Made by a program: the position numbers and the translations under genes. The notes under the pieces are model-generated. The model made no database searches, had not been told where the DNA came from, and saw only the letters and a program-made list of their open reading frames with translations. This document shows, in pieces, positions 39-25,829 of a DNA stretch of 64,000 bases. This DNA is from Antedon mediterranea. Its lineage: Eukaryota > Animalia > Echinodermata. Each line of letters opens with the position of its first letter. The stretch's first letter is position 1. The stretch covers positions 3,874,201 to 3,938,200 of the forward strand of contig NC_092679.1 of assembly GCF_964355755.1 (NCBI RefSeq), written 5' to 3'.

Positions 39-192
39 ACATGTTGACAATGATACCTTAACATGTTGACAATGATACCTTAACATGTTGACAATGATAC
101 CTTAACATGTTGACAATGATACCTTAACATGTTGACAATGATACCTTAACATGTTGACAATGATACCTTAACATGTTGACAATGATACCTTA
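39..192. repeat. Tandem minisatellite, 22-bp unit ACATGTTGACAATGATACCTTA x7
   Basis: Seven consecutive identical 22-bp units read directly from the sequence, with no spacers. Confidence 0.95.
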
Positions 193-1999: not shown

Positions 2000-2693
2000 T
2001 AAGATTGCAATAAAGTCTTTTTGTGTAGTTCTATTTTTAATGTATATGTTTGTGGTTGATGGTATTATTGATTGGACAGTATTTATGAGAATTTACACCC
2101 TGAACTTTTACTAGTATGTCTATTTTTTTACCCTGTTGTATGTCTACATAGTAAACACATTGATAAACACACAGCCTGTGTTGGCATACACGCTTCTTTT
2201 AATAACCATATTATTCTATTTAAACAGAATAATATTCACTGTAGGTGATCCAATTGTACTCATACACGTATTACATTCTCATTGTGTTTTCCTTTCAGCT
2301 TTTGTTATACTTTTCATTATTAAATTATTTAGTAGCGTCGTTCAATATTCATTGTGGAGATTAAATTTTGAACATTAAGATGTGGCTGCACAGTTTAGTA
2401 GGTAGCCAGTCATGTGTGCTCAGTGAAGCGTGACATTAACAACACGATTCTCATTATTACTACCTTATCGATTCAAATAAAGCCAATAACTGCCTTTCTT
2501 CGGTAGATGATGCATAGTTAATGAAGAAGGTTTTTTGTTAATCTACTTTTCTTTAATAATGTATAAATAAATTAAGAAAACATATAAACAAACTAAATAA
2601 TACAAAGCATTGCCTAGAAATGCAGCTTACAAACAGCACGATATTTATATTCAACAGCAAATTGTTATGTTAAACTCATTTACTTATATAATG

Positions 2694-2895
2694 CAGGCCT
2701 GGTCTTTTAAGGCGAGCGAGTGCAATCACTCACCTAACACACTCCTAAACTGCCCTTTAGGAGTGCGATTTACAACACGCCTAAATTTGGTAAACTTCTA
2801 CACACCAAAATACAAACAGCACACCTACAGCACCCCTGAATGTATTGAGGATTGCAATTTGTAGCACACCTATCATTTTTAAAAGACAAGGTCTG
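2694..2895 (+). mobile_element. Non-autonomous DNA transposon family D (CAG termini, 6-bp TSD)
   Basis: Termini CAGGCCTGGTCTTTT...AAAAGACAAGGTCTG, flanked by ATAATG on both sides. Near-identical copies at 16250-16448 (inverted) and 48011-48226. Confidence 0.85.
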
Positions 2896-3899
2896 ATAAT
2901 GTATAACAAATTTTAAAACATTTTTGTTTTCCCATAACAAATATTCATAATAGGCTAACCAAAATTTAAATTTAGATTTGTGGACTGGGAAACAGTAAGT
3001 TGTTACACTCTTAAAGGGTTTTAAAACATTTAATCTTAAATAAAAAAGGGTCCTATCAATCATGATAGGAAACACCATACAGCATTACAAAACCATCCCA
3101 AAAAAATATATTAAAAAAAATAAAAAAAATAGATTTTAAAAAATAAAAAAAATATATTTAAAAAAATCAAAAAAATCTTATATTATAGTTATTTTGAATT
3201 TTATGGAACTTTAAATTTTATTGCAATTTTTATATCTTTTTATAGTAGTTTTTATAATTGAATTTTTATGAAACATTTTTCTGTATGTATTGTTGAGAGC
3301 CTCAATGACCAGCTTTGCTGGACGTGGGCTACCCTCATGAAACATGGTTCAATCAGAGAGGAGTTGTAATTACAACTCCCTGGTTCAATGGATAAATAAA
3401 TGTGCTTTGTAAAACTCACAACAGGTGAATACAACTAAGGTGTTAACAATGCGTTACCTTTACTTTTGTTAAACATTTTATAGAGAGAGATTAAATGTTA
3501 GGAATTCTTCCACATGATCTGATCTTTTATTAATTGTTATTGATTTTATTCTGACCACAGAGAGGAAGAAGCGAAAAACCCTGTGTAGAATTAACATTAC
3601 AACAAAATGGGACTGTTGTTATTAAATGTTTTGTTATGTAGTATTATTCCAACTCAGTAATAAACAGGAAGGAATAGAATACTACTGTATACCATAAACA
3701 AACCAAAAATAAGGAAAAGGGAATGTTATTCTGAATCCAAAACAACATTTATACAGTAGTTACTCCAATAACTGCAGTAGAGTAATTTTATCTTGGGACC
3801 ATTCTATAGTCACCACCAGGTAGGCTTACTTCATCGAGGCTTTTATTTGGATTACTCTGTTGTTCCTTTGTACATTTTTGATTTAATTAAGTTTAACTA

Positions 3900-4175
3900 A
3901 GACCAGCTTTCATTTAATTACGGGTGCCGACTTCCCTCCTCTTATGATCCCACCCGACTTTCCGTTCCACGATCTAATCGGAAAGCTGATGACAATGCTT
4001 TTTCTGTCACCACTCCGCGGATCTGGAACGCGCTACCTGTCGATTTGAGAGGAGCGATTTCGGCACCTTTATTTAAACGTCAACTTAAAATTTTTCTTTT
4101 TAATTAATTACCAAGTATTGTTAGGCGCTGTGTTTTTTGTAGGGCGCCATATAAAAACTTGTATAGAATAGACTG
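3900..4175 (+). mobile_element. 3' fragment of an L2/CR1-group LINE retrotransposon
   Basis: 3958-4107 translates to LSVPRSNRKADDNAFSVTTPRIWNALPVDLRGAISAPLFKRQLKIFLFN*, the typical L2 ORF2 C-terminus pattern (AFS..P..WN.LP..LR.....FK..LK..LF). It is followed by a GGCGC...GCGCC 3' stem-loop and an A-rich tail. Confidence 0.8.
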
Positions 4176-5920
4176 ACTAGCTGGGAGCAGGAATGCTAGT
4201 AGACAAAACCCAGTATCGTTTTGATTACGATAAGTCGGGAAATTACCTCACGATGATTAAATGGAAATGTTGTTATTAAATGTTTATTAATAATTATGTA
4301 GTATTATTATTAGTAACTTAATAATATAAACAGGAATACTATACCATAAACAAACAAAATATAAGGAAAAGGGAGTATTATTAAATGGTTGGAACCATGC
4401 CAACTGAAACAACAAAATGTACTTACTGCAATAACTGCAGTAGAAAAATTTTGACATTGATGAGATGAATTAAAACTGCAAATATTTGCTTTTGCCATAA
4501 AGAAAATTGACTGCTTTCGTCAATACAATGTATATATTGCAGTGTTTAATTGTATTTAACTTTGCATAATTGGTTCATAGTTAATGGGCCACTGCTAAAG
4601 AAATATCATTTTAGATCTGACGTGGCGTTCATTCCACAGCAATAGAACTGATCATTGATCGAGAACAGAAAGGGATCAATACTAATCAATAATCTTAACA
4701 ATAGGAGCATTATCAAGCAACTAACTGATGCCATTATTCTCAAACACTATCATGCTTTTAACGCAAACGATGAATTTATAATTTGTTTTCATTCTCATAT
4801 ATATACTGTGTAAGAGAACAGGTTAAAATGATTCTACTTATACTACACTTACTGCAGTAACTACATTGGTTACTGCAACATGATTTTAATGTAGTTTATA
4901 AGAACAACAAAAAAAACAGTGTGCATAATTACCAAAAAAGCTTGTTGAATAAACTGGTTATAAAGAGTAACCATTACGTAGTTACTGCAGTAACTGCAGT
5001 ATAATCGTTTCGACAGGGTTCCTTTAAATACAGATCATAATAATAAAAAAATACAATTCCAAGAAAAATTTCTGGGTTCTAAATAGTTTTAAAAAGTTAA
5101 AAATTATAATTGCAAAATAGTAAATACACAAAAACTAGTACAATAAAACTATTACTGTACACACAGTGGTTCTTAGGTATAATGTGAAAAAAAAATGTGC
5201 CGTATATAATAATAGACATGATGATGTCATATCACTTCCATATTTGGGCATATTACTATCATAATTAGGAAAATCACACTTTTTGTCACATAAAATCACA
5301 AACTTCAATACTAGCCTATCTCCACTCTGTACAGTACACAATATTTGTGTTTTTTGATTTTATATTACTAATGAATTGAATTAATATATAATATAATTTA
5401 AAGAAGATATGTTATGTGGAAAATGTATGATAGTAATCTAATGACCTTGCAATACTGTTACATTTTAATGTTTTTTTTATATGCCTTTCTGTATCATATG
5501 TTTAAATTTCATGTGTTGTTTTGCTGTGAATTTGTCTACTTTTGATCCGTCATTTTAATGTTTCAATCTTTTAATGTTTCAAATACAATATTTTCAGACT
5601 TTTGTATGCTTTTTGTAAATTTGTTATACCTGAATAAAAAATGTTTAAAAAACAATGGTAAGGGATCATCAGGTCAAAATTATTGTACTGCAGTTAATGC
5701 AGTAACTACACTTTTCTAACTTCTTAACCTGTTTATTCAATTATTTAGCAAGCTCTGTTGTAAATCATAAACATTATAGATTGCATTGAACTATCTTATA
5801 TAAACCTCTAAATTGAAACTAAAATCATATACATTATTGCAGTAAACAATGTTACTGCAGTAACTCTAGTAGAATTATTAATGAAATAAAATACAATGTT
5901 ATTTAGTAACTAATACTCAC

Positions 5921-7239
5921 CTAATCTCCTGTTAATGTCATCATCCTCTACTTGATTTGGAATCAAATTTCGTTCGATCATAATATTTGCATATTTCTAT
6001 TTTAAAGATAAAGCAACAGAAAGTTTTGACCAATATACTTAAATGCAGAAAGGAAATGTTCAATTCAATTTGATGAACAGTTATTTAGATACAGTACTAT
6101 TGATGACATATCATATTTAAAGAATACCTATGGAATCTGTGATGATAGTGTGAAGTTGTAAAGTGACAGACATTGACTAACCATTGTTCATTGATGTGAC
6201 GTACTATTTAGGTTTTTATAGCACACCCCTGCGTGAATAATCATTTGTAAATGACGCACCTCTTCCGGGGGTGGTATGTTGGGTCATGCAAATTTTACAA
6301 GTACATTACCTTCGCCCATGTCACTCACCTCTATCTCTGCATCATTTATGATAACTTGTAAGTCTCTCTCACTCCCCTCATCATCTATTGTTTCAGATTC
6401 TGAGTATACAACTTTCTTTATAGACTTGGAACAAAGGACTGGTATTTCATATTCGACATCTTCATCACGGCCTGTAAAAGGAAAGAAAAATTAAAATCAT
6501 GCGGACTGCCATTATAAACATCAATCAAAAACTACATTTTTAAGATAGCTGTTGAATCGAGTAGTAGTTATCTATTACTTTATTAGGCCTCCATATCCGT
6601 CCCATCTAGACATTGCCAAATACTATAACATAACATAGTTATACTAGGCCTAGACCCTGGCCTAGTAGTAGTAGTAGTAGAGTAGGTATTTCACTCAGTC
6701 AAGAAGGCACTAGCTAGGGCTTACTACTACTAGCCTACAACTTTAACTACATATCTCCAGTAGAGTACAGTAGTACTACTCTACCCTAGTTAACCCTACT
6801 AGCTAGGCCTAGCTAGGCTAAATATAATAAAAAACAACAAATACTTGCCACATTCTGGTACAATTTCACCTATTGATATCAGCCCATTATGATAATCAGG
6901 AGAAGATCCTGTTATATCACAATTATCACATCTTTTGTCGGAGTAGGCTACACCTAACAGGCCTAGGCCAAGACCTAAGCCTGGGGAGTTATCAATAAAC
7001 TGTTGGTAGGCGACACCATCTAAGGGTAGAAATGGTCTCTCTGCGGCGACGTTGACCGGTGTCGCTGCGTTTACTATCAGAGGTTCAATCGGAAAATGCA
7101 CAACTTTTTGCCCTGATTGCGAGCCACCACATCGTTCATCTGCGTTGACTTTCATATTACACTGTACATTTGGATCTGTATGATCAGAGTTGCAGCTAGA
7201 TAAAAGCGCAACAAACATAAATAAAACAAACGAAGCCAT
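5921..7239 (-). CDS. Uncharacterised, probably secreted protein (5' exons only; 3' end unresolved)
   Basis: Exon 7239-6849 encodes MASFVLFMFVALLSSCNS... (signal-peptide-like, Cys-rich) and ends at a G|GCAAGT donor. Exon 6471-6329 has a polypyrimidine TTTTACAG acceptor and a GAG|GTGAGT donor. Exon 5996-5921 has a TAG acceptor and a G|GTGAGT donor. Phases join into one open frame. An upstream in-frame ATG at 7260 is possible. No family recognised. Confidence 0.55.
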
Positions 7240-7553
7240 CTCAATCGATACACATTTCATATCTGCTTCTTCGCTATCATTCTTTCTTTTTTGCAATTAA
7301 ATTGCAAGTTAGCGCATGTTTACAAACACCAAACATAGACGGCGCTGTTTAGTTTTACGGTATTATCAAAGAATATAATATCACAAGAATGAGTATTCCG
7401 CGATTTTTGCATGAGAAATTTGTAACAGAGAGCTCCAGAGAGTGATGCCCGCCCTCATAAGGGCGGATGTATACATACTAAATAAGACTTGATTTAATAG
7501 ATATTATACATGTCACATTAAATAGAATTATGATAATATATTTTGCAATTTAA

Positions 7554-8074
7554 AGATGTATTGTCCCTTTGTCAAATTCCAAAAAAAAATAAAAATTAGA
7601 AGATTTCGAAAAAAAAGTGGGTCATTTTGAAGTATCATAATAGTTATTAACTTTCCCCAAAAATTAGTCGAAAAAAAATTTATTTAACTGAAATACAGAC
7701 GTTTTTTAGTTTAAACAAAAACTGTGACTCCCAGTCAAAGTTTTCGATCAAAACATATCTCATAATGCAACGCGCTTGTTTGGCTACTATGAATGCATAA
7801 TCATAAAACTTCCTCGCGATCTGTGTGAAAACACCTTCTCAACCGTGACGAGTTGTAAACAATCCTAAATTAGGATCATGCATAATGCATACTCTTGGTT
7901 TGAAATCTTTGTTTACTTTCGCTTGTGACGATTTTCCAGACAAAATGTAATAAAACTAATTTACCTGTTAATTTTTGACTTAAAGTGAATAACTTTAATA
8001 TTACTTGATATGGCCAATTTAAATTTAGATTAATTTGACTTTCATTTTTTTGTGTTTCAAGGGACAATACATCT
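7554..8074. mobile_element. Non-autonomous DNA transposon family C (TTAA TSD, Kolobok-like)
   Basis: TTAA|AGATGTATTGTCCC...GGGACAATACATCT|TTAA. An inverted homologous copy lies at 41524-42135, and related termini at ~9238 and 45082-45325. Confidence 0.85.
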
Positions 8075-9822
8075 TTAAACTATTTTATAATACATTTTAT
8101 TAACAAACTAGTGTACATTCACTTTTACAGACAATTATTTACTAATGCTAAGTTAGTTCACAAAAAAATCCTAACACAGCAACACCAAAAATCAACGAAT
8201 CGTTACTCAGCACGGCGGCCTATTCTTTACCATTGCCGTGTACTACTCTACGCCCGGTAAATTAAACATTGTTTTTATGATATAAATTAGTATAAAATAC
8301 ATGTTATTAATAGGACAAAATGTTAAATATCATTAACATTTATTTGTTTTACCAGAAACAAGTTAAATATAGGAATATATTAAACTATCGTTCGTGAAAA
8401 CGCGTAAACACCAACACGCCCGGTCACGCTATCGTAGCGCCCGGTTGATAAAGCAAACTATTTATACGGCAGTTTTTACTAAATAAATTGCATAAAACGA
8501 ACAATTAAATATCCAAATAGTATTTAACATGATGTTGGCATGTTGTTTATAACGTTTTTTATCATGAAAATACTACCGGTGGTCCAGCCTTTGATTAGTG
8601 AAACCGTCCGTCACAAAAAGTTGTATACATCCCAGATACATCCACACTTATGGCGGCGCCCTACCACATGGACAATATTACTGTTACAGGGAAAATCGCG
8701 GATTACTCATTCTTGTGATATATATTCTTTGGTATTATCAAAGAAAGATAATTGTTAATGTAATACTGAAATCTTTTTTTTTTTTCATTTTTATGCCACA
8801 TAAAATACTTTTCGACATAAAGAAGGAAAAGTTAAATACTCAAGTCCTCATGATAAGATATATTAAAGCATAGCAAATCATAGAAGGTAATTATGTAGCC
8901 CTTGCGATTAATTAGTAATAGGCCTTCACAAATTAATTGGTGTTAGATTAGAAAAGAAACGATAATATAAATCATGAATTGTGAATATACAGTATTACTA
9001 TAACATTAATATTTTCATCATTATAAAATACAATCGAAAAACACCCGGATTAATGTTTTTGCTGATACAAAGGATCGTAGGCCTACTATTAACCGATAAT
9101 CTTATACAGTTAAAAATTGATTTTCTAGTCTTTCTTTTTTGCATGGAAAATTTTGCAATTTTTATGTCACCAACACTTTATCTTTCGTTTGTTTTGCATT
9201 TTTTACAGTAAGCCTCTCTGATATCACCCTTACTTTAAAGATGTATTGTGCCCCAAAATCATGAAAAATAAAGATTTATAAAATCAGATTTTTAATATGC
9301 CAATTTGCACTGAGTTTTAATGAAGTTATTCGCTTCAATAGGAAAAAAACGAACAAAAATAATGATTTCACTTATAAAAGGACCAAATAAACGGTTATTA
9401 GCCAAAGCCTTTAAATTATATAATTTTGTTGGCGATCCAATTGTCAAAGTGAATAACTATTATGTAACATTAAAATGGTATATTAACATTTTTTCCCTAT
9501 AGGCCTATGTAGTATTACAAAAAAGAAACGTTGTTGGGCAAAGAAATGCTTATTTATATTCCCCTCCCTCTCTAGATATTCCTTCCCACGTTTTACTGTA
9601 TGGGTTGAGCTTTTTAAGTTGACCATAATTGTATTTACACAATAATAAATGTTTGTTTAAATGGGCCTATTTTTATCCATACTGTATTATTACGATAAAT
9701 TAAAACACGGGATCGGGAAAGAGTGAAACGGTACTCTTCTTCGATCCCTCTCGGTTTATCTTTCATTCAGGAATGTCGCCCTCTTTATTACAATTACTTT
9801 GGGAAGGGAAAAAGAGAAGCGA

Positions 9823-9832
9823 CGCCATCTTG
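9823..9832 (+). promoter_or_regulatory. YY1-type motif (CGCCATCTTG) near the presumed hnRNP L transcription start
   Basis: Exact GCCATCTTG match ~90 bp upstream of the hnRNP L ATG; the motif is common at housekeeping-gene TSSs. Motif match only. Confidence 0.4.
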
Positions 9833-9913
9833 ATCAACTACAGCTTTTTTCAACAACTTCTCTCTAGCCTAGGCCTATCTCTCTCAGTTTTTAACCTAAA
9901 TATTTCCGTCAAG

Positions 9914-12900
9914 ATGATGTCAGGTTATGATGGACATGCTGCTAAACGACAGAGGACTGATACAGGAGGTCGAGGAGTGCAGTCTGGTGTAAGTATACTA
10001 TGCAATTTAAGGGCAATCTTATATTAGGCCAGCCAGCCAGGCTTGCTTTTTTGTCGAAAAGGTATCATGGTGATGAATGGTTGTAAATGTAAATGTGCGT
10101 TAGTGAAATCCCGGTGAGTCGTTCTGAATCTACACCCGGTATCGCCCGGTAGGGTTTTATGATTTAAAATGTAGTGCATTTTATACAAGTACATGTTAAC
10201 ATTATATTGAGTGTTATTGTGATATTTAATTGTACGTTTTATTTATATATTTTTAATGTAAAAAAACTGTCAAAATTGGTTTATTCCAGAACTGAAGACC
10301 GCCCTCTCTTCTCTGATAAGTGAGTGATGTTTTGTGGAGCGCGTCGAAGCGATTGAGGCGTTTGATATTAAAGCCCCCTTCCCTACGTTTTTTAGATCTA
10401 ATTTAAGATCACAAACTATATTTAATGTAAAAATAATACTATATGGTCCTATTGCGATAACTTTTTTCGTCTTTAAACGGTTAAAAATGTGAAAAATAAG
10501 TCGATTCTAATAATTATAGCGGCCCGCTATAAATAGGGATACCGAGAGCTGACTCCATTTTCATTACCACGATTAAACAGCGCGCACGTTACTATGCGCG
10601 CAATGTCATTGACGCGGTATTTTTTTACTTTGGTAAACACTTTTTATTAGGTAATTATTCTGAAAATAAATTAATTATGAAAATATCCTTTTGAGTAAAT
10701 ATTCATTTACCTATTATTCTATAAGATCAAGTATTTTTTATTTCCATTTCATTCAACCAAAAATGTTAATATAGTGGTTAAAAGATCGTTATCGCCTAGC
10801 GCGTATAGCTTTTGTTTACTACGAAACCCTCGGACGGCTCAATGACCTACCATTTTCAACCTTATTTTTGTAGTTGAGCCTCTTATGACCTCAAAATGTA
10901 TTTTATTCCTACACCAAGATAATATAGTTCCACATACCATGTGCTTGTTACTAAGAAAAATATTAATTTTAAGTGCTAAAAAAACAGTTTTATCCCGATA
11001 TGAGGTCTATATAATTCGAATATTTCGTAGTAACAGCCCATATACCATGAAAAATAGCTGTTTTGTCCATTTTAAAAATAATTTCTTTAAAATTCCGAGA
11101 GGCTCAACTACAAAAACGCCATTTTATGGTATGATGTCATCGCAAGCCAATCAAACCTTCGCATTCGACCGCTCCGCATGTCTCACGGTTGACCGATTTT
11201 GGATTCTCGCCCTTTGATTGGTTGACGCGAATCAACACACAGCGGAATAATTTTCTCGCAAGTGCCGTGAAGTCACATGGTGTCAGGCCTGTCCAATTAC
11301 ACGGGAAAATAATGCATTGAAATTCTTCGAATGAGGTTAAATAAACACTCTTTTTTATATAATAAATAAGTACTATCATATTTGATTGAATTTTACAATG
11401 TTGATATACAAAATATATTACTTAAAACCGTGATTTTATATAATTATTTTGACGAAAAATGACTAGTTCATACAATTGTCGACTGGGGGCGCAATTTGTT
11501 TACATCGTTCGTGGCTAAAAACGATAATTTTCGGCGATGTTTTAAACCCTATATTTCGAAAACTACAAGTCATATTTTCATAATTCTTTCTTTATTATAA
11601 TATTGATACAAAATACTAACAGGCAATGTATAATTTGTTTGCAAAATATTAACTTTTAATTTTACATCGTTATCCCTACTATAAATCCCAAAATTGATTG
11701 ATTGATATTTTTGTTTTTCACCGGTAATTCGCCCACTTTTCGATCGATCGTGAGGCCAAAACAAATGGAAGACTCCTAACTTTTCAGCGAAAATACCGGG
11801 TTTTCCCCAATTTGTATCAACGGAGTCTGGCAAAAATAGAAAGACAATTAATGCAGCAACTATACAACGTCAGGCTAGGTATATAGCTAGCGTATGATGT
11901 TCGTACGTTACCGATGTTTACCAGCTAGGCCTACAAAACTAAGCCTAGCTAGGCTAGGCCTAAGACCGTCCACGAGAGGTCGATCGCCGCGAGCTACTTA
12001 GGTAGTGCATTGTTTCTCACTTTTTATCATAATTTACCATAAAACGTACATTTAAGACAAGGAATGACATGGTTTAATGTTTTTAAAGTGATATATATGT
12101 ATTATTTTCCAAAAAACGTCCAAAATTGCAGGGAAGGGGTCTTTAAAATAATAATTTATTTTAAGCTAAGCATAACTAAAAAACACATCTAATTTTGTAT
12201 TAAAAATAATTGCAAATATGACGTGTTTGTTTTGTATATTTCGTAATATTTAATTAGCCTAATAATAATAATAATCCTACATGTGCATATTATTACAATT
12301 ATTATACTGAATTTTTTTTTTTCTTTTTTGTGTCGTTGTTTTCAAACAAAAAAATTGCGTTTAGTTTATATCTTTTGTTTGTAAGTTGAATCAGGCTGAC
12401 TGCTCGTATCCTAAAAAAAGACAAAAAGATACATAATAATTAATATAGGCACATTGAAATATTATTATTGTTGTACTAATTATAGGACGACTGTCTAAAA
12501 CCAAAAAAATAAGTTAAAATACACTATATCACTTTATATCACACTTTTCTCTAATTTTCAATATTTTAAATCTACCCAGGCATTAATGACACAATGTATT
12601 GTTTATTCATTTGTAGGATCCATTTGAAGAGTCACATGGCAAGCCAGGACCGTCTAAAGTCATTCATGTCCGTGGACTTGCTGACAATGTAACAAAAGGT
12701 GATCTTGTGGAAGCCCTTCAACATTTTGGACAAATCAGGTAATTTAAGATAAATATACAGCAGTACTTAATCAATTACAAGTAACTCCCATTCTATTAAA
12801 CAAAAGAAAAGTAGCCCTTACATTTCCATTATCGCTTTCTTCATTTTTGATAACAAACCTAAAGCTCTGTTTACACTATCAAACTTTATGTGACAAAAAA

Positions 12901-15900
12901 ATGTGATGTGCCCACATACATGGACATGATGTCATATCACTACCGAATTTGGGTATATCACTACCATATTTGGACACATCAGACTTTTTATGTGAAATTA
13001 GTTTGATAGTGTAGGCAGAGCTTAATATATCTCAAATAATTGATAATTGTAAATCATTTTGCCATTTTCTCATCAGTTATGTTTACATGATGCCAAGACG
13101 AGGACAAGCTTTGGTAGAATTTGAAGAGTTTTCTGGTGCAAAGGCATGTGTAGATTTTGTGAATGTAAGTATTTGATTGATAATTTGAATCACTTTGAGC
13201 AATAAGCGCTACGTAAAATATTATTATTAAATTTATGTTAAAAGATCTTTATTTGTTTAATTAACTTTTTTTTACAAGGGTAGCTCTAACCGCTGTACTA
13301 CAGCAGTACAGCTGACTTGAAGATGCCCTAATGACAATAAAGGGTATACATAAGTAATAATTTTTGTTATTTACAGGAACATCCAGAAAATGTGGTAAAT
13401 GTTGCAGGTACCCCTGCATTCTTTAACTACTCAACCAGCTCAAAGATCAAAAGGCCAGGGTAAGATTCACTACATCTTCAAGATTCTTCATTTTGTTTTT
13501 TGTTTTTTAAATAAAGAATATTACTTTTGTACTTGGAAGTTTGTTTACAGTCTGATAATGATATACAAAAGAAATGCAAAATTCTTGAGCTAATAAAGAA
13601 TTTGATTTTAAATTCTAATTGTTCCAATTAGGGTCGTTTAACACAGAAACAATTTTAGTAACGTGTATTTTAAGTAAAAAATTTAGCTATATTTTAGATC
13701 TGTCAGTGGTTTACTGACATTAATAAACTTGTAGAACTGATTAATTATTAGTAGTAATAATTAATCAAAGTTGAATGAACTTGATAAATTTTGTATCATG
13801 ATTATTATTCATAAAATGCCTGGTATGAATTTCAAGAAAAGCCCCCCTATTATATCACTGATGAGACTTAATTAAATGGTTGATTAATGATTAACTACAC
13901 ATATGTTGCTGCTGCTCATACAGTACTTGCATTCTTCAGTTAGAGCTTGCTACGTTGTGCTTTACAAATATGTCTGATGCCTACGATAGTTAAGTATTGC
14001 AACTTACTAATACTGTTACTTTTATTTTAATGTAGCACATCTTAATCCTGTGTTTGGATAAGGGGATTAGACAATATTATAGTAGGCCATTTGGCAAAAT
14101 GTTAGGAATGAAGTTACTTAGTAGTTTACAGTATTAGGCATATTTATACTGTTTTTTGGATAATGGGGATTAGACAATATTATAGTAGGCCATTTGGCAA
14201 AATGTTAGGAATGAAGTTACGTAGTAGTTTACAGTATTAGGCATATTTATACTGTTTTTTGGATAAGGGGATTAGACAATATTGTAATAATTGGCCATTT
14301 TGCAAAATGTTAGGATGAAAGTACTTGCAGGATGGTAGTAGTAGTTGACAGTATTAGGAAGGTGTGTCACAGTATGTGCTATGCAAAATATACATAGGAT
14401 TTAAAATAACTAGAGACCTAAGCTCTCTCTACACTATCAAACCAGTTTGACAAAAAAGTGCGATGTGCCCAATTATGGTAGTGACACAGTATGCCCAAAT
14501 ATGGTAGTGATATGACATCATGTCCATATGGGCACATCACATTTGTTTGTAACATAAACTTTGATAGTGTAGACAGAGCTTTACTGGAAGAATCTTTGGT
14601 GAAATCACAGCTAGATGAAGTAAGGAGTGATATAGAACAGCAATGTCCTACCATTAATATTCAAAGCCTGTTTTTTTTTTTTTTAGTGATGGTCTTGATG
14701 AGAGTGGTGCCAATAATGTACTACTTTTTACCATTTTGAACCCTCGCTATCCTATTACCACAGTAAGTACAAGAAATTAAACATCATTTGAAATTAACCC
14801 CTCCCCCCCCCTCTTAAATACATAAATAATTTATTATTAAAATCTAGAGTTATCTTCAATATGGACCAAACTCTCTGAGACATGGCTCACTTTCTAATTA
14901 TTAATTGATGTGTTTATTTTCAGGACGTTCTTCATTCCATCTGCAAGGGATATGGTGAAGTTCTTCGTATTGTGGTTTTCAAGAAAAATGGAGTACAGGC
15001 TATGGTTGAATATCCTTTATATGATATTTTAATATCTACAGTATATAATATAAATCATTTCCTCAAATCATTTTAATCCATATAATGTGTGCTGAGTTAA
15101 TGAAAGCTTTTTATATGTTATATGCAGTTTGCGGTTCACCATGTATATACAGTTTAGAAAAGAACTGTTGATTTTCTCGATGTTTCTGGTTTTCCAGCAA
15201 ACTGTATATCACCATATTGATTTCGCCATGCAAACCTTCAAACAATATAAGCTTTTTATTGCCAAATATTGCCTAGTAATAGAGGTGTAAGACAATTTTT
15301 TTTATTTAAATGCAAAAATATTACAGGAGATTGTGGTATGGGCACAAATTAACTGCTAATATGAAATACTGATATCTATTTCTGACAACACTAATAATAT
15401 TATTTGTTAATGTTAGCACTCCGCCATTAAATAATCCTGTATCCGCCTTGCATTGTGAGATAAAAGGTGTAAAAATGCAACTGTTGCACTATGCCATTGT
15501 TAAATCCCAAGTATATCATTGTATTCGAGTTATTTTCCTTAACACTTTGTTTAAGTTTGACTCAATTACTAGCTCAACATCAGCACTTCAGAACTTAAAC
15601 GGCTGTGATGTGTACTCTGGTTGTTGTTCTCTTCGTATTGACTATGCTAGGGTATGTACATTGCAGAGTGATTCTATTGAAACTATGTACTAAGCACTTA
15701 GTTTCTAGCCATATGGTCATTTAAAGGTATAATTAGCCAGTCCACTGCTTGAGGAAAGCCATAGCATGTTGCTTCCAAAGATCTCAAACTGTAGAACCAG
15801 TTGGTTACTTTGTTAGTTACCCCTTATAGTCCTTGAGGAAATGATTGTATTGTGCTCAATTATTCAATGTTACTCTTTCTACTATTCTTGCAGCCCAAGA

Positions 15901-18900
15901 CACTAACTGTACACAAAAATGACTCTGAAACTTTTGATTACACCAACCCTACCCTCGGAGCCACTCCAAACAACCCGAGTAAGTCTCTTTTAAATAATAA
16001 CATTCTATTTAAAATGTACATAATGTGTTTTTCCTGTTAATAAAAATAAATAAATGACGAAAGGTTTTTAGAGGGAACAACAATTTAAAAAAAAAGGGAT
16101 TGTTTCAAAATTTGTTTTTTAAATTCATGGGGTTGGTCAATGGTAGCATATCAAAAACTTTGTTGTTGTTTTCCATCACATATTTCCAGGGTTCTTGCCA
16201 CGACGGTTACCAGTGGTAGAGGGTGTGGTCACCACTCTCTACAGTACATCAGGCCTTGTCTTTTTAAAATTGTAGGTGTGCTACAAATTCCACTCCTCAA
16301 TACATTCAGGGGTGCTGTAGGTGTGCCGTTTGTATTTTGGTGTGTAGAAGTTTACCAAATTTAAGTTTGTTGTAAATCCCACTCCTCGGCAGTTTAAGTG
16401 TATGTTGGGTGAGTGATCGCACACGCTCACCTCAAAAGAAAAGGCCTGATACATGCTGGCAAGCACCCTGTATTTCATAATGTACTGTAAATTACATGGT
16501 TACATTATATGGCTGTGTTTAACATTAACCACATTTCTTTTCAATTTCAGCACATTTTTTCTCAATCTCCTAGAGATAACCAACATTCCTTTATATTTAA
16601 CAGTAATATATTATCATGCATTTACTTCCTCAATAAGCATACAATGTTTTATCTTTCAATTGTAACATTGCAACCAGTCTTATCATATCACGATAAGACC
16701 ATTTTCAGAGTGACAACACATTTCAGCAAGTTACATAATCGACTCTCAGAACAAGATCAGGTAGAACGCAAGCTAACACGGAATACAAATGACGTTCAAA
16801 GCACAACAATATTCATGACATTCGTTACCTCTCACTAGCATTCAACGTAATAATATCAGAAGTTGAATCAACATAATAAGCATTGAAATAGTACACCAGA
16901 TATATGGTTGAAAGATGCCATGTGATATCACCATAATGTATATTACAAGACCATGATCTGCATAAGACATGAAGGCCTCACTGTTATCATAACCAGTCAA
17001 GAGATGCTGACAACAGTCATGTGACAACAGTCATGTGACAACCAACGTCTATTTGTCACCACATATCTTTCATACAGCCACTTCATACAGTGCCTACAGA
17101 AAATGACATGAATGAACACAACAAGGTGACAATGAACATGGCAAGGTGACAATGAACACAATAAGGTGACAATGAACATGACAAGGTGACAATGAACATG
17201 ACAAGGTGACACAACATGGTGACCGCAGGAAACATGAAATCATGATTATACACATCAGTTCATTTGAAGAGTTAACAACACCTTACATTGTGTGGATATG
17301 GTTCTTCGAACTTTAACCTTTACACAAAAGGGCATTCCTGTCTTTCAATTGGTTTTCTTTACGCATCAAGCCTGTCTACCCTTCCTTTGTGGTGTTTCTT
17401 AAAATGATTTCATGTACATATTTTTCACACAGAACAGTAGTTAATTTTCTCATACTAACATACGTTACCATTCTTAAGTTGTTACATATTTTTATACTAG
17501 ACATGTTATATGATGTTTCATTATGTTCTATTATCATTGTGGAGCATATAACACAAACATTGTATCATTAATAAAAATACAAAAACCTGAGTGTTAGTTT
17601 TTATTACATCATCGAGAAAAGGCAACTTACAGCAATATGACTCTCACCAACCTCAAAACAATGGAATATTCCAACTAACAATGCAATATTCCAACCCACA
17701 ATGCAATATTCCAACCAACAATGGAATATTCCCACCCACAATGCAATATTCCAACAAATGAAATAATTGAATAATGTATATTTACAATGATGAAGAAATG
17801 TACATGGAAGATTCTTAATATACAAACCAGCATTTGAACAAAAACAATATACCGTACAATAAATGTACATTATATTATCCTGCATTTAACTGAAATAACT
17901 TGCCATTTTATATATGAAATTTGTACAAATATATAGCTCACCCAATTTGCAACATTACAAAAAGAAATTACCATTCTGGTCAAAATATCTACAAAATTCA
18001 TTGAAAATTCAATCTCTTTTATTTTTAAATACCTTTTATTTGCTGGTTATGACCATACTTTCTTCTTCATCTTCCCAATATATTTGGAATCTTTTCCTGG
18101 TTTCCTCCTTTACCCCCTTACTGATACCCGGCAGAGGTTGCCGTCATGGTGGTATTTGAGAGATTGTTGCCGAAGTTGCTCTCTGGCTGTGCGTTGACAA
18201 GCCTGACGTGTTGACATCGTCAACCTGAGCACACTTGTGTGTAAGTCATAGTGAATGTTATTTTTTACTTAGGTAGTTGTAATTTATATAAGTGTATTTA
18301 AATAAATATAATAATTAATATACTGTGCAATAAATCCAATGTTAACATGTTGGTGTTTTAATATTTAACTATGTTCTGTTGAAAAAGAAAATGTTTGTCA
18401 TAATCTTTGGTTTCTTTTTTAAGTACAGGTTTTTATCCATACAGGTTAATTATGTTTTAAAAAGTTAAAATTGGTTGTCTTTTCATAATTTATTTTTCTT
18501 TCCACGTCATTCAGTCGGCATTGCCTACTTATTATTATGTTTTATAAATGTTAAAAAGCTATTTTGCATACAGCTAACGTGTTTAATTTTGCTTAATAGG
18601 TCGTGGTTCAGCGCTTCTAGATGACCCACCAGAGCCAGCTTACAATGGACCAAGTGTCCGAAGCAGAGGTGGAGTCCGTAATGACGGCATGGGCCCAGGA
18701 GGTGGTGGACGTTATGGTAATGTCCATTATTTGTGAACTCCAAAATGTGGAATTTGTTAGAAATCACAGCCGCTTTGGTTAGTGCCAACGTACTGATTTA
18801 TATCTAACTTTATTTCCATTATCTATTTAGGTATGGAGCCACCTATGCCTTCATATGGTAATGGTTCTCGTGCCGGTTACCAAGAGCGTGGCTTTCAAGG

Positions 18901-21900
18901 TCGCGGCGGTGGTGGATATCCTGTCGAACGAGGTGACTATGGCCAGTCTTACCAGGATCCATACGGTATGCAGTCTCCCTCTGCATTATCGTCGGCCATG
19001 ACTGGTGGCCCCGTGGTGATGGTTTACAACATGGACCCAGAGAAGATGAACTGCGAGAGGCTTTTCAACCTCCTCTGTCTGTATGGAAACGTTGTTAAGG
19101 TAACTCATTCATACACATTTATTCAGTTATTTAACTGGGGAAAACACTAGAAGCAAAAGCTTGTCTCATGAAGGCCCCTACAATACAAATATGTATTTAC
19201 TCTCATTCTCTTTTCAACTTCCTCTGTCTGTATGGAAACATTAAGGTAATTCATTCATTCAAATGCATTTATTCAGTTATAACAATAATAACTGGGGGCC
19301 ACACTAGAAAAAAAAGCTTGTCTCATGAAGGCCCCTACAATAAAAATATGTATTTACTCTCATTCCCTCATCCTTTGGATTGTATCTAAAGCTGTAGGTT
19401 CAAACAACCATACTAACTTTTTAGTGTGTTGTTATATTACAATTTCATTTGTGTTTCCAGGTCAAGTTTATGAAGACAAAGCCAGGGTGTGCTATGGCCG
19501 AGATGGCTGATGCCCTAGCAGTTGAAAGGGCCATTACTAACCTGAGCAACATTGAATTCTTTGGAAAGACTATCCAGCTTGGGTAAGAATCTTATGTAGA
19601 ATGTCAAATAGCATATATTCACCAGCATAAAATAGGGCTGACAATCCCTTCACACACTAAACTTTAAACAAATCTTGATTTCATGAGATGTTGAGGTTTC
19701 ATAAGAGATCATTTCAAATTATTTTCATCATCGAATACATTTTTACTTTAATAACCTATGATTTCAATTTGTTTGTTTCAATTAAGTAGAAGTTTATGAG
19801 GCAGTCCCTACATAAAGCAATGTGTATGATTACCAAAAAAAAAGCTTGCCTACAAAATTGCATTAACAGCTTAAAGAGCAAACAAAATGTAGTTACAGCA
19901 TTAGCTTAAGTAGTATAATTTGGCATGGTACCTTTTCTGCATTGCAATATTACAAAAGTAACTCATCTTTATGGTTATCTTATCTTACTATAGCTTCTCC
20001 AAACAAATGTACATTGCTCCACCACCAGTAGTTGGAGACTTATCTGATGGTACACCTGCGTTTAAAGATTTCTCAAGTAGCCGTAACAATCGCTTCTCAA
20101 CTGTAGAGTCTGCTGCCAAGAACCATATCCTTTTTATCATTATTGGAAATCTAACATTCCTGAAATTTCTATTCATGAATAAGACTTAAAATTTGCATAT
20201 ATGAAAAGGCCTTTAAAAACGTTGAAAAAATGATTGTTTTTTAAGTTTGTTACAATATGATATAGATATTTTATCAGTTTGACTTATGGATGAGCACTTA
20301 TCGTTTTAAACAAAAAGATAATTTTGTTATTATCTTAAAAACATTTAAATGTATTACAGCTGAGCTGGCATTACATTTAATAGGGAAAAATTGTTTAATG
20401 TTCGCATAGGAAATTGAATTTATAAAATGTTTTGGTTAAAATAAAACTTCAGTTTGACAAGAGCCATATGTTCTAGATACGGTACTAAGTAGGTGTAAAT
20501 CCCATGTAGTCAAAACCTGTTTAAATTTGTATTTTTTTAGATTTGATGGTGTATTTTGTTATATGTATTTATTTTCATTTGATGATTTCATTATATTGTT
20601 GTACCTTAATTATATGTTCACGTATTCAGCAACCGTCCAAGGTGCTTCACTTCTTCAACTCCCACCCAGAAAGTGATATTGAAAGGATAAGACAGGTAAA
20701 TATAGAAGAAGCCATCAAATATTAAAACACAAATTAAACCACATTGATCTCTCTTTCTAGTCCATTCAGCTTCACAAGTTTTACCTCTAAGGCCACAAGA
20801 CTTAAGCTTCACAGTATAGTTGATTGAATAAAACTGTTCTGTTCATAATAAAAGTATAAACGTAAGATGTACAAGGAACCAAAATCTGCTTACAATTAAA
20901 GTTCCAGTGGCTAAGACCAACCATTTCTAGAGCTCTTTTTTTCCTAATACAGTACAGTGAAAGACTGGAATACCATTCCATACTCCACACCATTATTAAT
21001 AAAACACCACTAAGCTGATCTCTAAATTTGACTCGCTAACCCCCCCTCTCCCCCCTCCTCCTTTCCTCCACCTCTATCTACACATAGAGTGATAATTTAG
21101 TTTTTCAATTACATAATAAAGATCAAAATGTTTAAAAAATAAAGGTACCTAAATAATTAACCTGTAAGACCTAGTCTTCACATGTCAACTTTGTATTGCT
21201 GTTAAGAATTTTTTTGGGGTTTTTTTTTCTCGAAAACCTAGTAAACAACCTTGATAATACTTGTAGTTCAGTCATGGCTATTAGTATTGGGCGTTTCTAA
21301 CTCAGATCCTAATCTAATCATCAACCATCCAATTGAATTAGATTTCTCTAATTTAATCGTTTTTATTTCAATCATTTTTAGGTATTTGTGACATGTGGTG
21401 CTGTAGAGCCGTTAAACATTAAAATGTTTGAAGGAAAAAGCAATGAGTATCAGAAAGGTTAGTATACTGAATAATACTAATTTATTATTTATTCTATTTA
21501 AAAAAACCTCCAGAAATGAAGAGATACGTTGAAATATCAAATCAATACAGAAAAATATACAAAACAATTCAAAGCTTAATCTCTGTCTACACTATCAAGC
21601 CAGTTTGACAAAAATGTGTGATGTACCCCAAATATGGTAGTGATATGCCCAAATATAGAAGTGATATGATGTCCATATATGGGCACATCACGTTTTTTGT
21701 CACATAAAGTTTGATAATGTAGACTGAGCTTTAGATTGCCCTCAGTAAGAGTTAAAGATAATTAATATGGTTTTTATTTACAAGTGTAATAATAATAATA
21801 AATGTTGATGTATTTCTGAATAAATTCAATTAGATAGTTTTACCTCGTAATTTGAAGAAAAAAAAGCTAATAAGTAATATATTTCAATTTATTCATAAAC

Positions 21901-23074
21901 ATGATAGCAGCTTTTACAAATTTATGAAATTTGTAATTTATTCCGGTTAATTGTACCGTAGATCGACTATTTACACAAAAAATGTTTACTTTACAATTGA
22001 CATTTGTAATACAATGTATTTGAAACATCTGTCGCCACCAGGTGACCTCACAAGTTGTATAATGTCTTTCCACAATATCTGGTTGTACAGAAATGTGCTG
22101 ATAAATTGCATTTAAGTTTAGACACTATTTATTATAAACCCAAAAGTCTACACAGGCAGTCGTGTCAAAATTACACTATTTACTTTAGTTTAGTGTACTG
22201 AGTCAGTCACTGCTATAATTATTAAGAATATAATATTTAATATATTCTTTATACTGAATGACATTTTCAGTGTTAAGGAATTGTTTTTCAAAGTGGTTCA
22301 GTAGAGAACATCAACAATATAAATTAAAACAATAATTTACAGTAAAAGCTTGCTAAATAATGTATAAACAGGTTATACAGTGAATAAATTATAGTTTCTG
22401 CAGTATAATTATTTATTTAATTACAGTAATTAAATTAATATAATGTTGATTTCCTCATTTATAGGTGAACGTAGCCGTACAGGCCTAGCTGAGTTCCCCG
22501 ACAAAGCCAAGGCAATTGAAGCCCTTATTCTCTGTAACCACACACCCATGCAAAACCCAAGTAAGCGTACTACTGTAGACAAATGTTTTTACCTGAGATT
22601 AAGTTAAATTTTTTTTTTTCATTATCAAATTTACTTTGAAATGGCCCTCGTTTTAAGCTGTCTACACTATCACTACACTATCTTCATATATGGACATGAT
22701 GATTACCATCACACTTTTTTCGCCAAACCAGTTTGATAGTGTAGACAGCGCTTTAGATATTTTAACTGTCTGTAATACAAAGTCACATTTATAACGTGTA
22801 TTATGTTAAGGTTAGGCATATGACCTAATTTACAGCATCACATGTTATGTGTATGTGACAGATTCAATTACAGATACAGTACCAAGAAGCAGCTATTATA
22901 GTATGTTGAGAATTATAACATGAATATTGTATGCATTATAAATGTTATTGGAAATACATTGTATTTATTTTCTGACAGAAAACAGAAATATTTAAACTTT
23001 TTTTTTTCTCTTCAGATGGCCGTTTCCCGTATACTTTCAAGCTGTGCTTCTCAAATTCAATGCACGCCCAGTGA
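9914..23074 (+). CDS. HNRNPL: Heterogeneous nuclear ribonucleoprotein L family protein (4 RRMs), 551 aa, 16 coding exons
   Basis: Exons: 9914-9988, 12617-12738, 13077-13164, 13377-13459, 14687-14762, 14924-15009, 15555-15651, 15894-15978, 18600-18716, 18831-19099, 19461-19582, 19994-20124, 20622-20695, 21382-21457, 22465-22560, 23016-23074 (1656 nt, open frame). Diagnostic peptides: KRQRT, PSKVIHVRGL, NNVLLFTILNPRYPIT, IVVFKKNGVQAMVEF, LNGCDVYSGCCSLRIDYA, MNCERLFNLLCLYGNVVKVKFMK, SRNNRFST, KNRIQQPSKVLHFFN, PYTFKLCFS. Confidence 0.95.
10372..12142. mobile_element. ~1.8-kb non-autonomous Kolobok-like DNA transposon in hnRNP L intron 1
   Basis: TTAA|AGCCCCCTTCCCTAC...GCAGGGAAGGGGTCT|TTAA: imperfect TIR, TTAA TSD and AG terminus. 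The interior is CpG-rich and has an internal inverted repeat (TTTTTGTAGTTGAGCCTC ~10865 / GAGGCTCAACTACAAAAA ~11098). No transposase ORF. Confidence 0.75.
12863..13022. mobile_element. MITE family A (PIF/Harbinger-like)
   Basis: TAA|AGCTCTGTTTACACTATCAAAC...GTTTGATAGTGTAGGCAGAGCT|TAA. Confidence 0.85.
14052..14320. repeat. Tandem duplication, ~108-bp unit x ~2.5
   Basis: The unit TTTGGATAA(T)GGGGATTAGACAATATTATAGTAGGCCATTTGGCAAAATGTTAGGAATGAAGTTAC... recurs at ~14053, ~14155 and ~14258. Confidence 0.85.
14421..14580. mobile_element. MITE family A (PIF/Harbinger-like)
   Basis: AGCTCTCTCTACACTATCAAAC...CTTTGATAGTGTAGACAGAGCT termini with the family's internal motifs. Confidence 0.85.
15010..15554 (+). 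other. U12-type (minor spliceosome) intron with AT-AA termini
   Basis: 5' site ATATCCTTT at 15010 and branch site TTTTCCTTAAC at 15533-15543. The frame (GA|G TTT GAC = E-F-D) is kept only if the intron ends at ...TTAA 15554. Confidence 0.85.
16187..16470. mobile_element. Small CAGGG-ended DNA element (6-bp TSD TATTTC) containing a nested family D element (16250-16448)
   Basis: Outer element: TATTTC|CAGGGTTCTTGCCA...TGGCAAGCACCCTG|TATTTC. Inner element: CAGGCCTTGTCTTTT...AAAAGAAAAGGCCTG, flanked by GTACAT/ATACAT. Confidence 0.8.
17111..17215. repeat. 20-bp minisatellite (ATGAACATGACAAGGTGACA) x ~5
   Basis: Repeated units read directly from the sequence. Confidence 0.9.
17657..17757. repeat. 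20-bp minisatellite (ACAATGCAATATTCCAACCC-like) x ~5
   Basis: Repeated units read directly from the sequence. Confidence 0.9.
18135..18240 (+). other. Candidate poison (PTC-containing) cassette exon of hnRNP L
   Basis: Polypyrimidine tract CTTTTCCTGGTTTCCTCCTTTACCCCCTTACTGATACCCGGCAG, then a GC-richer 106-nt segment, then a GTAAGT donor at 18241. When spliced after exon 15894-15978 it gives an in-frame TGA at 18212-18214. Confidence 0.65.
19060..19365 (+). repeat. Tandem duplication copying the 3' end and donor site of hnRNP L exon 10
   Basis: CTTTTCAAC(C/T)TCCTCTGTCTGTATGGAAAC...TTAAG|GTAA and the downstream intron sequence (AAAAGCTTGTCTCATGAAGGCCCCTACAATA...) occur twice, about 150 bp apart. 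Confidence 0.85.
20125..20621 (+). other. U12-type AT-AC intron
   Basis: 5' site ATATCCTTT at 20125, branch site TACCTTAAT at ~20602-20610, and 3' end TTCAC at 20621. Splicing gives AAC C|GT ATT CAG = N-R-I-Q of the conserved KNRIQ motif. Confidence 0.92.
21579..21730. mobile_element. MITE family A (PIF/Harbinger-like)
   Basis: CTCTGTCTACACTATCAAGC...TTTGATAATGTAGACTGAGCT termini. Confidence 0.8.
22656..22752. mobile_element. MITE family A, short copy
   Basis: AGCTGTCTACACTATC...GTTTGATAGTGTAGACAGCGCT. Confidence 0.7.
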
Positions 23075-24270
23075 ACCTTATTTCATAATCAATTATTACG
23101 CCTGTTAATAGCTTTTTTAGTAACAAGATGATTAGGCGCTATTAACCGTGTAATATTTAAAAAGAAATCACCTTAATTTTATTCTAAAACAAGAAAATTA
23201 AGAATTAAAACTGAATAGCTGCCACATTTTGTTTTTTGAATAAATTTGTAATCATGACCGATGTCTAGAAGCCATGTGTTTTTACAATTTGTATATAATG
23301 GGAGTAAGAGTAAAAATCAATTTGAAATGCATTAATTCAATGTGTACGTATTTGAAATAAAAATGCTACAGTATTAGAAAAACAATGAAGCTGCTAGTCA
23401 AAGAAAGCAGAGTTTTTAAATTTTTGTGGGTGGTTATTTTAAAACAATTTGTCAGCATTACGTTGATTGTTTATTTGTTGTGGTGGATTTAGGGGAATCC
23501 CCCTCTCCACCACTCCTATCATTTTTATCCTAATCGCATTTCAATCAACTATAATAAGTCGATACATTTTATTATTTTGAATGTTAAATGCTTTTAATGT
23601 TTATACATTATTTCGTTTTTTAATTTTAAAATATAAATTTAATTTTAACAGCAACTCACCCCTTTATTGATTTGCCACTGCAAGGGGTAGTCAAGTTGAT
23701 TTAGTTTGAAGATATTCACAAGCAGGGTAGAAATAAATGCATGGCTAATTTTGCACCATAACCAGCAGTCTTTTGGGAGCCTATCATATTTTATTTTTGT
23801 GATCTAGGCCTGGGGAAGTATTAGTATAAGCATATTCATTTATTATTGAGTAGATGCTGTACTGCACTGAATTAATGTGAACCAGACAAGTACTAATCTA
23901 TCTAAAGGTTCCTTTCTGACAATGCTTTCTTTGTGGTTACCGGCCTGTTAAGAATCTTTTCAAGAAACCATGCATGCTTTTCATTTATTTGTATCTACAA
24001 AATAGTTGTATAGTGTAGAATTGTTTTTCACTGGTATTGATTATGTTGTAAAAGTGCTGATTAAAAATGTCTTCAACAAAATCTGAATCTTGTGTTTGCA
24101 TTATTTTTGTTTATACCAGTTTCATATTCAGTAATTATGGTGGGCCCTTAGTGGCCTACATGTACCTATAATATTACAACAAACCTACCAGATAAAAGAC
24201 AAAACCAGGTGTACTAAACTCAAATCGATGTGTCGTCTGAACGCGTGTTTTTGCACAAGTTTACCAGTAA

Positions 24271-24519
24271 AGTTCCGTCTACACTATCAAACTAGTTTGA
24301 CAAAAAAGTGTGCCTAAATATGGTAGTGATATGACATCATCATGTCTATATAAAATTTAGCTTGAAATTGAGGTTAAAGCAAATTGCTTATTCGCCCCTC
24401 TGCAATTACACATCTCTTGCATACGGCTGAAACTCCTGGTGGTGGTTTTCCAGAGTTCTTTCAGGTTGGATGGTCAAGTCACATTTGTTTTCACATAAAG
24501 TTTGATAGTGTAGACAGCT
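24271..24519. mobile_element. MITE family A with an internal insertion
   Basis: AGTTCCGTCTACACTATCAAAC...GTTTGATAGTGTAGACAGCT with family motifs. Confidence 0.7.
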
Positions 24520-25829
24520 TAGCAAATGGCATTTTAGTGTGAACATGAATTGTATGGGAATAAATCCAGGTATGAGTGAAATTACAAGAATATCAAAGTT
24601 ATCCATGTGGAGGACATTCTGATTCAGTCGCGCGCCTATATGACGTCTTATTATGTATAAATAGTATGATATCCTTATAACATTGATTAAGTGGGACAAG
24701 GCCTACTATGTTTAAATGCATGATCCTTTATTAAAATGATTAAGTGTGACAAATACATTGCTATCACACGCGAAATATTTACACTATAATAATAACATGT
24801 ATATTTATATCTTCACTTTGGTGCATATTCTGCCAAGCCCAATTACAGGGTTGGTCATAGGCCAATTTGAAATACTTTTTTATAAATATCCCCAGGTACG
24901 TCTCTTCCGATTTACCAGTAGGATTACCAGCGCTAAGATTGCGGATTAAGTTCTTCTGTGGCTTACTGTGCATTTTTATACATTTGTAAGCCTAGATGAA
25001 TAATATTGTTATTGTTTATATTTGAAATAGGAGTGCCACCCCGTATGTATGATGCAACACCAAACATAATACAACGTACTGTTATAACCAATACATCCAG
25101 GGATTTCAAAGATAAGTCATTACTCCCAAGTTTGTCCATTAGGCTTATGTCCAATGTTTTTAGAATCGATTTCTACGCGTATGACAACAAGCAAAATAAA
25201 CTAGAATAAAAAATAGAAATTGTGCTTAAATTATGAAGTATATCCTATCAAGAAGAGCGCGCGCACTATGAATAGGTAGGTCCGGGTTATAATTAATGTT
25301 CGTGTTGGCAATTCGAAATTATCATTTAATTAATAACTTTATAAAGACTTTAATGATCAACACAGCGTATAGGCTACAGTGAAAATATTTTTAAGGCACA
25401 AAGGTAATTGTATTGCACTCTTACTTTACACATATTAACTCTAATTAACCTGTTCATATGTTTGGAAATATGTTTAAACTTTAGCCAATAATTTTGACTG
25501 TATTGGATCTTGTTTTCATATAGAGAGACAACCACAAATTAAAATGCTCTCAGAATTAAACCAAGCGCACATCCTAGTTATTAAGAAGTGAACCAGGGAG
25601 ATTTATGGGGGAAACGTACCCACATGATGGGGATAATATTTTTCTGCCATTATCCTTCAAGACGCCTTGATATTTTTGAAGCGCTATCAAAATGGACTGT
25701 ACCGTAGTGTCCTAATGATATAAAACATAAATAAGAGGAGGACGGAGTAAATCACAGGGAGCATTCGCCGATGAAAACCAATAAGTTAATATCGCCTTTT
25801 CTGTCCATTTTTTTGTTCCACTTGCAAAA

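Follow-up and report, generated by a model that had tools for sequence, protein, structure and literature searches.

A textbook example of a splicing factor that sets its own level is the HNRNPL loop. In humans, the loop reportedly depends on a CA-rich enhancer in HNRNPL intron 6, where the poison exon 6A also lies, a description attributed to Rossbach et al. in 2009. The available parts of published accounts place the binding of human hnRNP L in intron 6, 5′ of exon 6A, at a long conserved CA-rich enhancer (PMC7547044, PMC6884704, PMC7764535, PMC6885243), and describe a poison exon that is promoted by hnRNP L and cross-regulated in the family member HNRNPLL (PMC7764535). ARGLU1 is reported to contain a detained intron with an alternative NMD exon, retention being due to complexes at that alternative exon (PMC5389617), and detained introns of SRSF3, SRSF5 and SRSF7 lie beside poison exons (PMC5602073). 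A CA-rich motif has also been assigned to fly Smooth (PMC5694756). A literature search that covered mainly titles and the openings of abstracts, with subscription papers largely outside it, returned no report of the HNRNPL loop beyond vertebrates, and the reports concerned mammals only. In the main text of a fly NMD survey, no mention of smooth was found (PMC2689934).

We analyzed a window of 64,000 nucleotides from the crinoid Antedon mediterranea (NC_092679.1, positions 3,874,201 to 3,938,200), in which the original prediction had placed an hnRNP L gene with an autoregulatory module in the intron after RRM2. Coordinates refer to this window, and features lie on the + strand unless stated otherwise. 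Our gene model (coding span, 9914..23074) comprises 16 exons and encodes a protein of 551 aa with four RRMs. This protein matched, residue for residue, the RefSeq hnRNP L-like protein of Antedon mediterranea (P0001), the single protein that RefSeq lists for the gene. Solved hnRNP L domains were the best matches in a PDB search with the crinoid protein, and the closest relatives of P0001 among the best 120 of 1166 matches were hnRNP L proteins of echinoderms, hemichordates, spiralians and vertebrates. FastTree placed the crinoid protein inside the deuterostome hnRNP L clade with a support of 1.0. Judged by its sequence, the host gene is an hnRNP L orthologue, and the predicted gene identity was confirmed.

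Exon 8 (15894..15978) contains the DYTNP sequence, ends RRM2 and is the counterpart of the exon that precedes vertebrate exon 6A. It is followed in the gene model by intron 8 (15979..18599; phase 1, 2621 nt) and by exon 9 (18600..18716), which begins the RRM2-RRM3 linker and is also represented in an RNA contig. The vertebrate exon was placed by means of protein tails and a published primer and not by vertebrate DNA. Among the best 120 of 169 short homologs, vertebrate read-through tails part ways one base into the codon that follows the DYTNP exon. Three of these proteins (P0159, P0144, and P0147) have a common short tail right after this exon, and the tail of P0159 and P0144 includes the peptide specified by the primer published for human exon 7 (6A), the stop-bearing autoregulated exon. 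Phase, DYTNP position, tails and primer peptide agree, and by these sequence comparisons crinoid intron 8 corresponds to the phase-1 intron in which vertebrate poison exon 6A lies, as had been claimed. Short proteins ending after the DYTNP exon were rejected as a sign of retention, since many end at the preceding intron too.

Several further features of the gene were recorded. Intron 15010-15554 is of the U12 type with rare AT-AA ends, and its acceptor was the sole one among four tried that yielded the full protein identical to P0001. Its counterpart is a U12 intron in eight loci of the comparison described below, with an apparent AA end in L070, L074, and L075 and an AC end in L076 and L080. 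A second U12 intron (20125-20621, AT-AC) is partly covered by a contig of sequencing run X1, and a U12 donor occurs at the equivalent position in L059 and L060. The end of exon 10 is copied together with its donor by a tandem duplication at 19061-19365 (period 157, 84%), and the duplicated donor at 19246 is the top-scoring intronic GT of the gene. Six codons at the end of exon 14 (21440-21457) are absent from the Anneissia protein, and GT/GC sites at 21440 and 21447 make an alternative donor possible. A high-copy family of small inverted repeats occurs in several introns and 3′ of the gene (~12860-13000, 14420-14585, 21600-21730, 22650-22750, and 24270-24520), and a 103-nt tandem array is located at 14053-14319.

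The best-scoring CA segment, a CA/ACA-rich tract and predicted hnRNP L landing pad within intron 8, spans 16420..18011 and scores 54.8, compared to 11.3 for the opposite strand. Between 16480 and 18000, we counted 181 CA dinucleotides (119/kb), while the window mean is 62.5/kb, and none of 5000 base shuffles reached this count (mean 111, sd 7). The tract ranked first of 42 non-overlapping 1.5-kb windows (180 CA; runner-up, 114), and the best 1.5-kb window for TG, representing CA on the other strand, contained 121. These counts bear out the ~1.5-kb sense-strand CA/ACA tract that had been described in the intron after the DYTNP exon. The excess is confined to the sense strand and stops just 5′ of the pyrimidine tract; in the pyrimidine tract and downstream of the cassette, CA density drops to 37-42/kb. 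Intron 8 overall has 92.7 CA/kb, the highest value of 15 introns (three short ones reach 85-89), and the other 14 introns pooled have 61 CA/kb.

The tract consists of dispersed CA/ACA and not of (CA)n, the longest run being three CA. Enriched words are ACA, CAA, and CAT, the top 4-mers are ACAA, AACA, CAAC, and ACAT, and CACA and ACAC are raised weakly. CA pairs spaced 1-3 nt apart numbered 62, compared to 18.7 expected from the window, which is not above the level set by the tract's own CA content; a 7-mer motif was not enriched in the tract (3 observed, 4.9 expected). The pooled word count covered four loci with fixed ranges. hnRNP L is described as recognizing repeated CA with loose spacing (PMC3823766), and the loose CA spacing of the tract suits this protein. 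By analogy, the tract likely binds hnRNP L itself. Three small tandem arrays (17008-17042, 17111-17211, and 17657-17755; span, 17008..17755) lie inside the tract, and 110 CA/kb remain when they are removed. A transposon origin of the tract was rejected in view of its single-copy depth in DNA run X2 and the lack of a match elsewhere in the window. A small MITE-like inverted-repeat element outside the tract (16248..16448, no strand assigned) has two further copies in the window (84-88%) and a high summed X2 depth. An Rfam search of intron 8 gave no match, a weak chance match being found only at 12871-13012. The tract had fewer differences than three other X1 intron contigs (12 in 1789 positions versus 17 in 1016; p 0.018); the comparison reflects one haplotype and was discounted as evidence.

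The predicted poison cassette (18135..18240) is 106 nt long. Its AG ends at 18134, its GTAAGT donor starts at 18241, and an in-frame TGA occupies 18212-18214. Use of a second AG (18135-18136) would produce an exon of 104 nt (18137-18240) with a TGA at 18157-18159. Coordinates, donor, stop and the early TGA behind the alternative AG at 18136 were thus all found as originally predicted. Eight junctions follow these stops, which lie 911-966 nt 5′ of the last junction. The weak tandem acceptor is preceded by an AG-free zone of 168 nt (17965..18132), the third longest of 3080 and far longer than the 18-54 nt of true acceptors, and within it the pyrimidine tract at 18030-18129 is the top 100-nt window of the + strand (74% pyrimidines). 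The predicted "strong polypyrimidine tract" therefore holds for the length of the tract but not for the strength of the acceptor, the last 20 bases of which scored -10 on a small matrix built from 13 U2 acceptors of this gene, where true sites score 0.6 to 13.5. The donor scored 8.1, third of 613 intronic GT, and one more intronic GTAAGT exists elsewhere in the gene. The cassette combines a strong donor with a weak acceptor. All 92 AG that could serve as acceptors between exon 8 and 18240 yield a premature stop, and retention of the 5′ part of intron 8 leads to an in-frame stop at 16038..16040 (codon 258), in agreement with the unproductive outcome that had been proposed.

Other functions of this region were examined. 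Recursive splicing at the AG-GT of 18135-18138 was rejected, as the reformed donor scores -2 and stepwise removal via 18240 cannot restore normal mRNA. RNA folding of 17950-18300 gave a z of 0.01, and a structured RNA or snoRNA in intron 8 was discarded in view of the missing Rfam match there and of none in six other loci. The intron is overlapped by 33 stop-to-stop frames of 40-115 aa, none of which stands out as a hidden protein gene. Three apparently unused AG sites (16551, 18429, and 18445) score like true acceptors (10.4-12.3). The first is near the start of the CA tract, and the other two are AG-GT sites that enclose 16 nt within the last 359 nt; no junction at any of the three was found among X1 contigs, and they are possible decoys.

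Two of five sequencing runs (X1 and X2) were aligned to the gene, one of them in detail on 16452-19099. None of the five is recorded as RNA or as NMD-blocked material; X1 was taken to represent spliced RNA because its contigs join exons at GT..AG. Depth is given as a single value for each contig and does not measure expression, and rare forms are lost from contigs. Three X1 contigs covered 16452-19099. One joined exon 8 to 18600 (skip junction; depth, 238.9), one contained exons 9-10 (416.7), and one ran unbroken from 16419 to 18240 and was then joined to 18600 (28.9; one contig, one run). The third contig lacks a 359-nt GT-AG intron with a GTAAGT donor (18241..18599), and these 359 nt are present in a continuous X2 DNA contig. 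The X1 contig graph kept the 18240-18600 path, and an unspliced path was absent. Donor 18240 is used in RNA whose upstream intron part persists, and what can be seen is a half-spliced RNA that retains intron sequence, not a finished poison exon. The two junctions predicted for the cassette thus fared differently: 18240 to 18600 was seen in one X1 contig, whereas 15978 to 18135 (or 18137) was absent among X1 contigs, in which rare forms are lost, and the upstream intron was retained instead. X1 contigs were also found on introns 4, 12, and 15 at a depth of 10-20, so the retained part of intron 8 (19-29) may be ordinary pre-mRNA.

The mechanism that we propose is modeled on the human HNRNPL loop. 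Abundant hnRNP L would coat the CA tract upstream of 18240 and promote definition of the cassette, and its binding would raise the use of donor 18240, damping its own synthesis. The strong donor would pair with exon 9 first, and the downstream intron would be removed. Once 18240 is joined to 18600, the exon 8 donor is left with a weak acceptor behind the 168-nt AG-free zone, and RNA that still carries this upstream part exists; the weak acceptor would make removal of the upstream intron slow. The half-spliced RNA might either be kept in the nucleus and turned over there or be finished at 18135/18137, in which case the resulting 106/104-nt poison exon would be removed by NMD too fast to appear in assemblies; both ends would yield no four-RRM protein. 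The module would have been inherited from an early bilaterian in the intron of exon 6A, with position and base composition kept and not alignable sequence. We assign a probability of about 0.62 to this explanation as a whole, in which an hnRNP L-bound CA tract at an ancient position drives unproductive, self-limiting splicing at 18240. By analogy, crinoid hnRNP L likely limits its own production as the human protein does. The predicted feedback circuit at the equivalent intron agrees with intron position, CA excess, donor use and unproductive outcome, while the junction from 15978 to 18135/18137 is missing from its support. Use of donor 18240 is documented by a single contig of a single run, which weighs against this reading, as do the missing junction, the low acceptor score, the lack of (CA)n runs and of motif enrichment, the modest CA excess in other loci and the absence of similarity between lineages; at other targets hnRNP L bound upstream of an exon is described as mostly repressing.

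The same intron was compared in other loci taken from the best 80 of 192 metagenome matches, with taxa placed by FastTree only. Thirteen loci contained a complete homologous intron. Excluded were L055 (a duplicate of L054), L031 (no intron there), L062, L063, L069, L075, and L079 (locus cut by the contig end), as well as transcripts and loci that are intron-poor or end short of the intron. All 11 loci checked by translation have the intron in phase 1. In 10 of the 12 loci with a background value, its CA density exceeded the non-coding background of the locus (sign test, p 0.019), and the intragenic background was exceeded in 7 of 9 (p 0.09), the loci not being independent in either test. The CA/TG ratio was raised in 5 of 9 loci, and the CA excess is modest outside the crinoid. 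Four long introns have 91-105 CA/kb upstream of the predicted cassette versus 42-64 downstream; the share of other windows of the locus that reach these introns was 0.147, 0.089, 0.062, and 0.000, with L061 alone beating all. The predicted cassettes, picked by eye from DNA alone, have ordinary acceptors and in-frame stops in four other loci.

Two pairs of loci allowed a closer comparison. L059 and L060 group with spiralian proteins with moderate FastTree support and share a non-coding block of 137 nt (86%, ~155 CA/kb) in the homologous intron only; nine other matches between them reach 73-80%, below the value of this block. The common donor word alone was not significant (14 of 100 shuffles). 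The first GT in L060 leads to no stop, and the GT five bases on, chosen post hoc, leads to a stop inside the cassette in both loci. The CA-rich block (L059:7694-7825 and L060:1081-1216) ends in acceptor-like and donor-like words 8-9 nt apart that are kept in both, which may be a decoy micro-exon. The second pair, L054 and L061, is a divergent non-deuterostome clade. It has a common 12-nt word (1 of 100 shuffles) centered on a donor that lies 172-189 nt ahead of the next exon, and predicted cassettes of 72 and 87 nt, each with an in-frame stop. The elements follow one order in the crinoid and in the two non-deuterostome pairs, from CA tract through pyrimidine tract and cassette to a short last intron. 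The original prediction had allowed for an ancient or a convergent circuit, and this matching layout favors an ancient one.

Not every locus could house the module. The homologous intron is absent in L031, and the introns of L065 (89 nt) and L066 (62 nt) are too short to leave room for it; that of L066 (1239-1300) is a GC-AG intron. L022, L028, and L033, on long contigs, have no visible introns over RRM2-RRM4 and hence cannot carry the loop. No poison-exon insert was evident in the transcript-like loci L001-L049; in the six entries that were flagged, no stop follows the DYTNP exon immediately. In L057 (~9700-9900) and L051 (~8800-9100), a CA peak of 170-190/kb lies one intron upstream, before the DYTNP exon, and the module may have moved there.

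A different origin of a real loop would be separate gain in vertebrates, echinoderms and protostomes, the linker intron being an easy site in which a CA-rich stretch was selected. The homologous intron has no sequence similarity between lineages, cassette lengths (106/104 nt in the crinoid, 72, 87, and 41-68 nt) and frames differ, and the CA peak of L057 and L051 is displaced, all of which fit separate gains. We nevertheless consider convergence a minority possibility, because one and the same intron out of ~15 is involved and the elements stand in the same order in the crinoid and both non-deuterostome pairs. The comparison across loci suggests that the feedback circuit is likely older than vertebrates.

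Feedback could also operate by retention only, as in ARGLU1. hnRNP L on the tract would keep the 5′ part of intron 8 from being removed, with 18240 serving as an alternative donor and 18135/18137 as a decoy that is almost never ligated. Such a mode matches the RNA that was seen, the weak acceptor and the long AG-free zone, and it has precedents in which complexes at an alternative exon are reported to cause retention (PMC5389617, PMC5602073). However, low-depth NMD targets are lost from assemblies, so the junction is expected to be missing either way, and the cassettes predicted in four other loci have ordinary acceptors and in-frame stops. We regard retention without a poison exon as unlikely.

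The unproductive splice might instead be controlled by another regulator, either an IMP/IGF2BP-type protein on the CA tract or PTB on the long pyrimidine tract, or hnRNP L might repress the cassette and not promote it. The top words of the tract are not CACA or ACAC, IMP3 too is reported to bind CA-rich arrays, and elsewhere hnRNP L is described as repressing at upstream CA elements and cryptic exons. Both variants must, however, accommodate that the gene encoding the main CA-binding protein houses the top CA tract of 64 kb, and that this tract shares with the human enhancer both its intron and its side of the exon; furthermore, SRSF3 is reported to add to the human HNRNPL loop and not to replace it. 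We rate these variants together as decidedly unlikely. A complete lack of regulation, with 18240 as a cryptic donor producing noise in slow pre-mRNA and the tract as a decayed tandem repeat that is CA-rich by chance, could draw on the three arrays, the second intronic GTAAGT, the RNA contigs on other introns and the single contig, but is very improbable given that the CA excess survives array removal, that the contig graph has no unspliced path, that the 18240-18600 junction leaves no AG ahead of exon 9 and hence no route toward normal mRNA, and that a like layout and a conserved block occur in unrelated animals.

Under the preferred reading, an hnRNP L-driven loop with a poison exon, the crinoid module is a further case of the known HNRNPL feedback type and is probably ancient. 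More tentatively, and with somewhat less than even odds, we suggest that a self-brake present in the bilaterian ancestor has persisted for more than half a billion years as an intron position and a CA density, with no sequence that can be aligned, and that its main state is a half-spliced RNA whose CA-loaded upstream intron is held after the downstream intron has gone. If true, the loop would date to early animals, with a splice seen in RNA in the crinoid and its outline in protostome-type genes. The cis-element would be kept as composition and not as sequence, invisible to alignment-based scans. Removal of the downstream intron ahead of a CA-loaded upstream intron that is held back is an order of events that may also hold for the human gene.

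The closest known system is HNRNPL intron 6 with exon 6A, which shares with the crinoid locus an orthologous gene, a phase-1 intron after the DYTNP exon and a long CA-rich region 5′ of a short stop-bearing cassette that is rarely seen in mature RNA. Alignable similarity between the two is not expected, and the crinoid differs in its ~1.5 kb of dispersed CA/ACA, its 106/104-nt cassette, its tandem weak acceptor and its 168-nt AG-free zone. Unlike in human, its visible product retains the upstream intron, and binding and NMD, demonstrated in human, are putative in the crinoid. HNRNPLL is a vertebrate paralog, whereas the crinoid gene clusters with hnRNP L of deuterostomes. With ARGLU1 and the SRSF genes, the proposed module shares three outcomes of one intron (full splicing, retention or a poison exon) and a retention tied to an internal cassette. 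The feature typical of ARGLU1, an RNA with a retained intron part beside the alternative exon, is present in the crinoid (16419-18240 joined to 18600). The ARGLU1 and SRSF cases rest on an ultraconserved element, while in the crinoid only the upstream part is retained, next to a downstream part that has been spliced out, and nuclear detention is putative.
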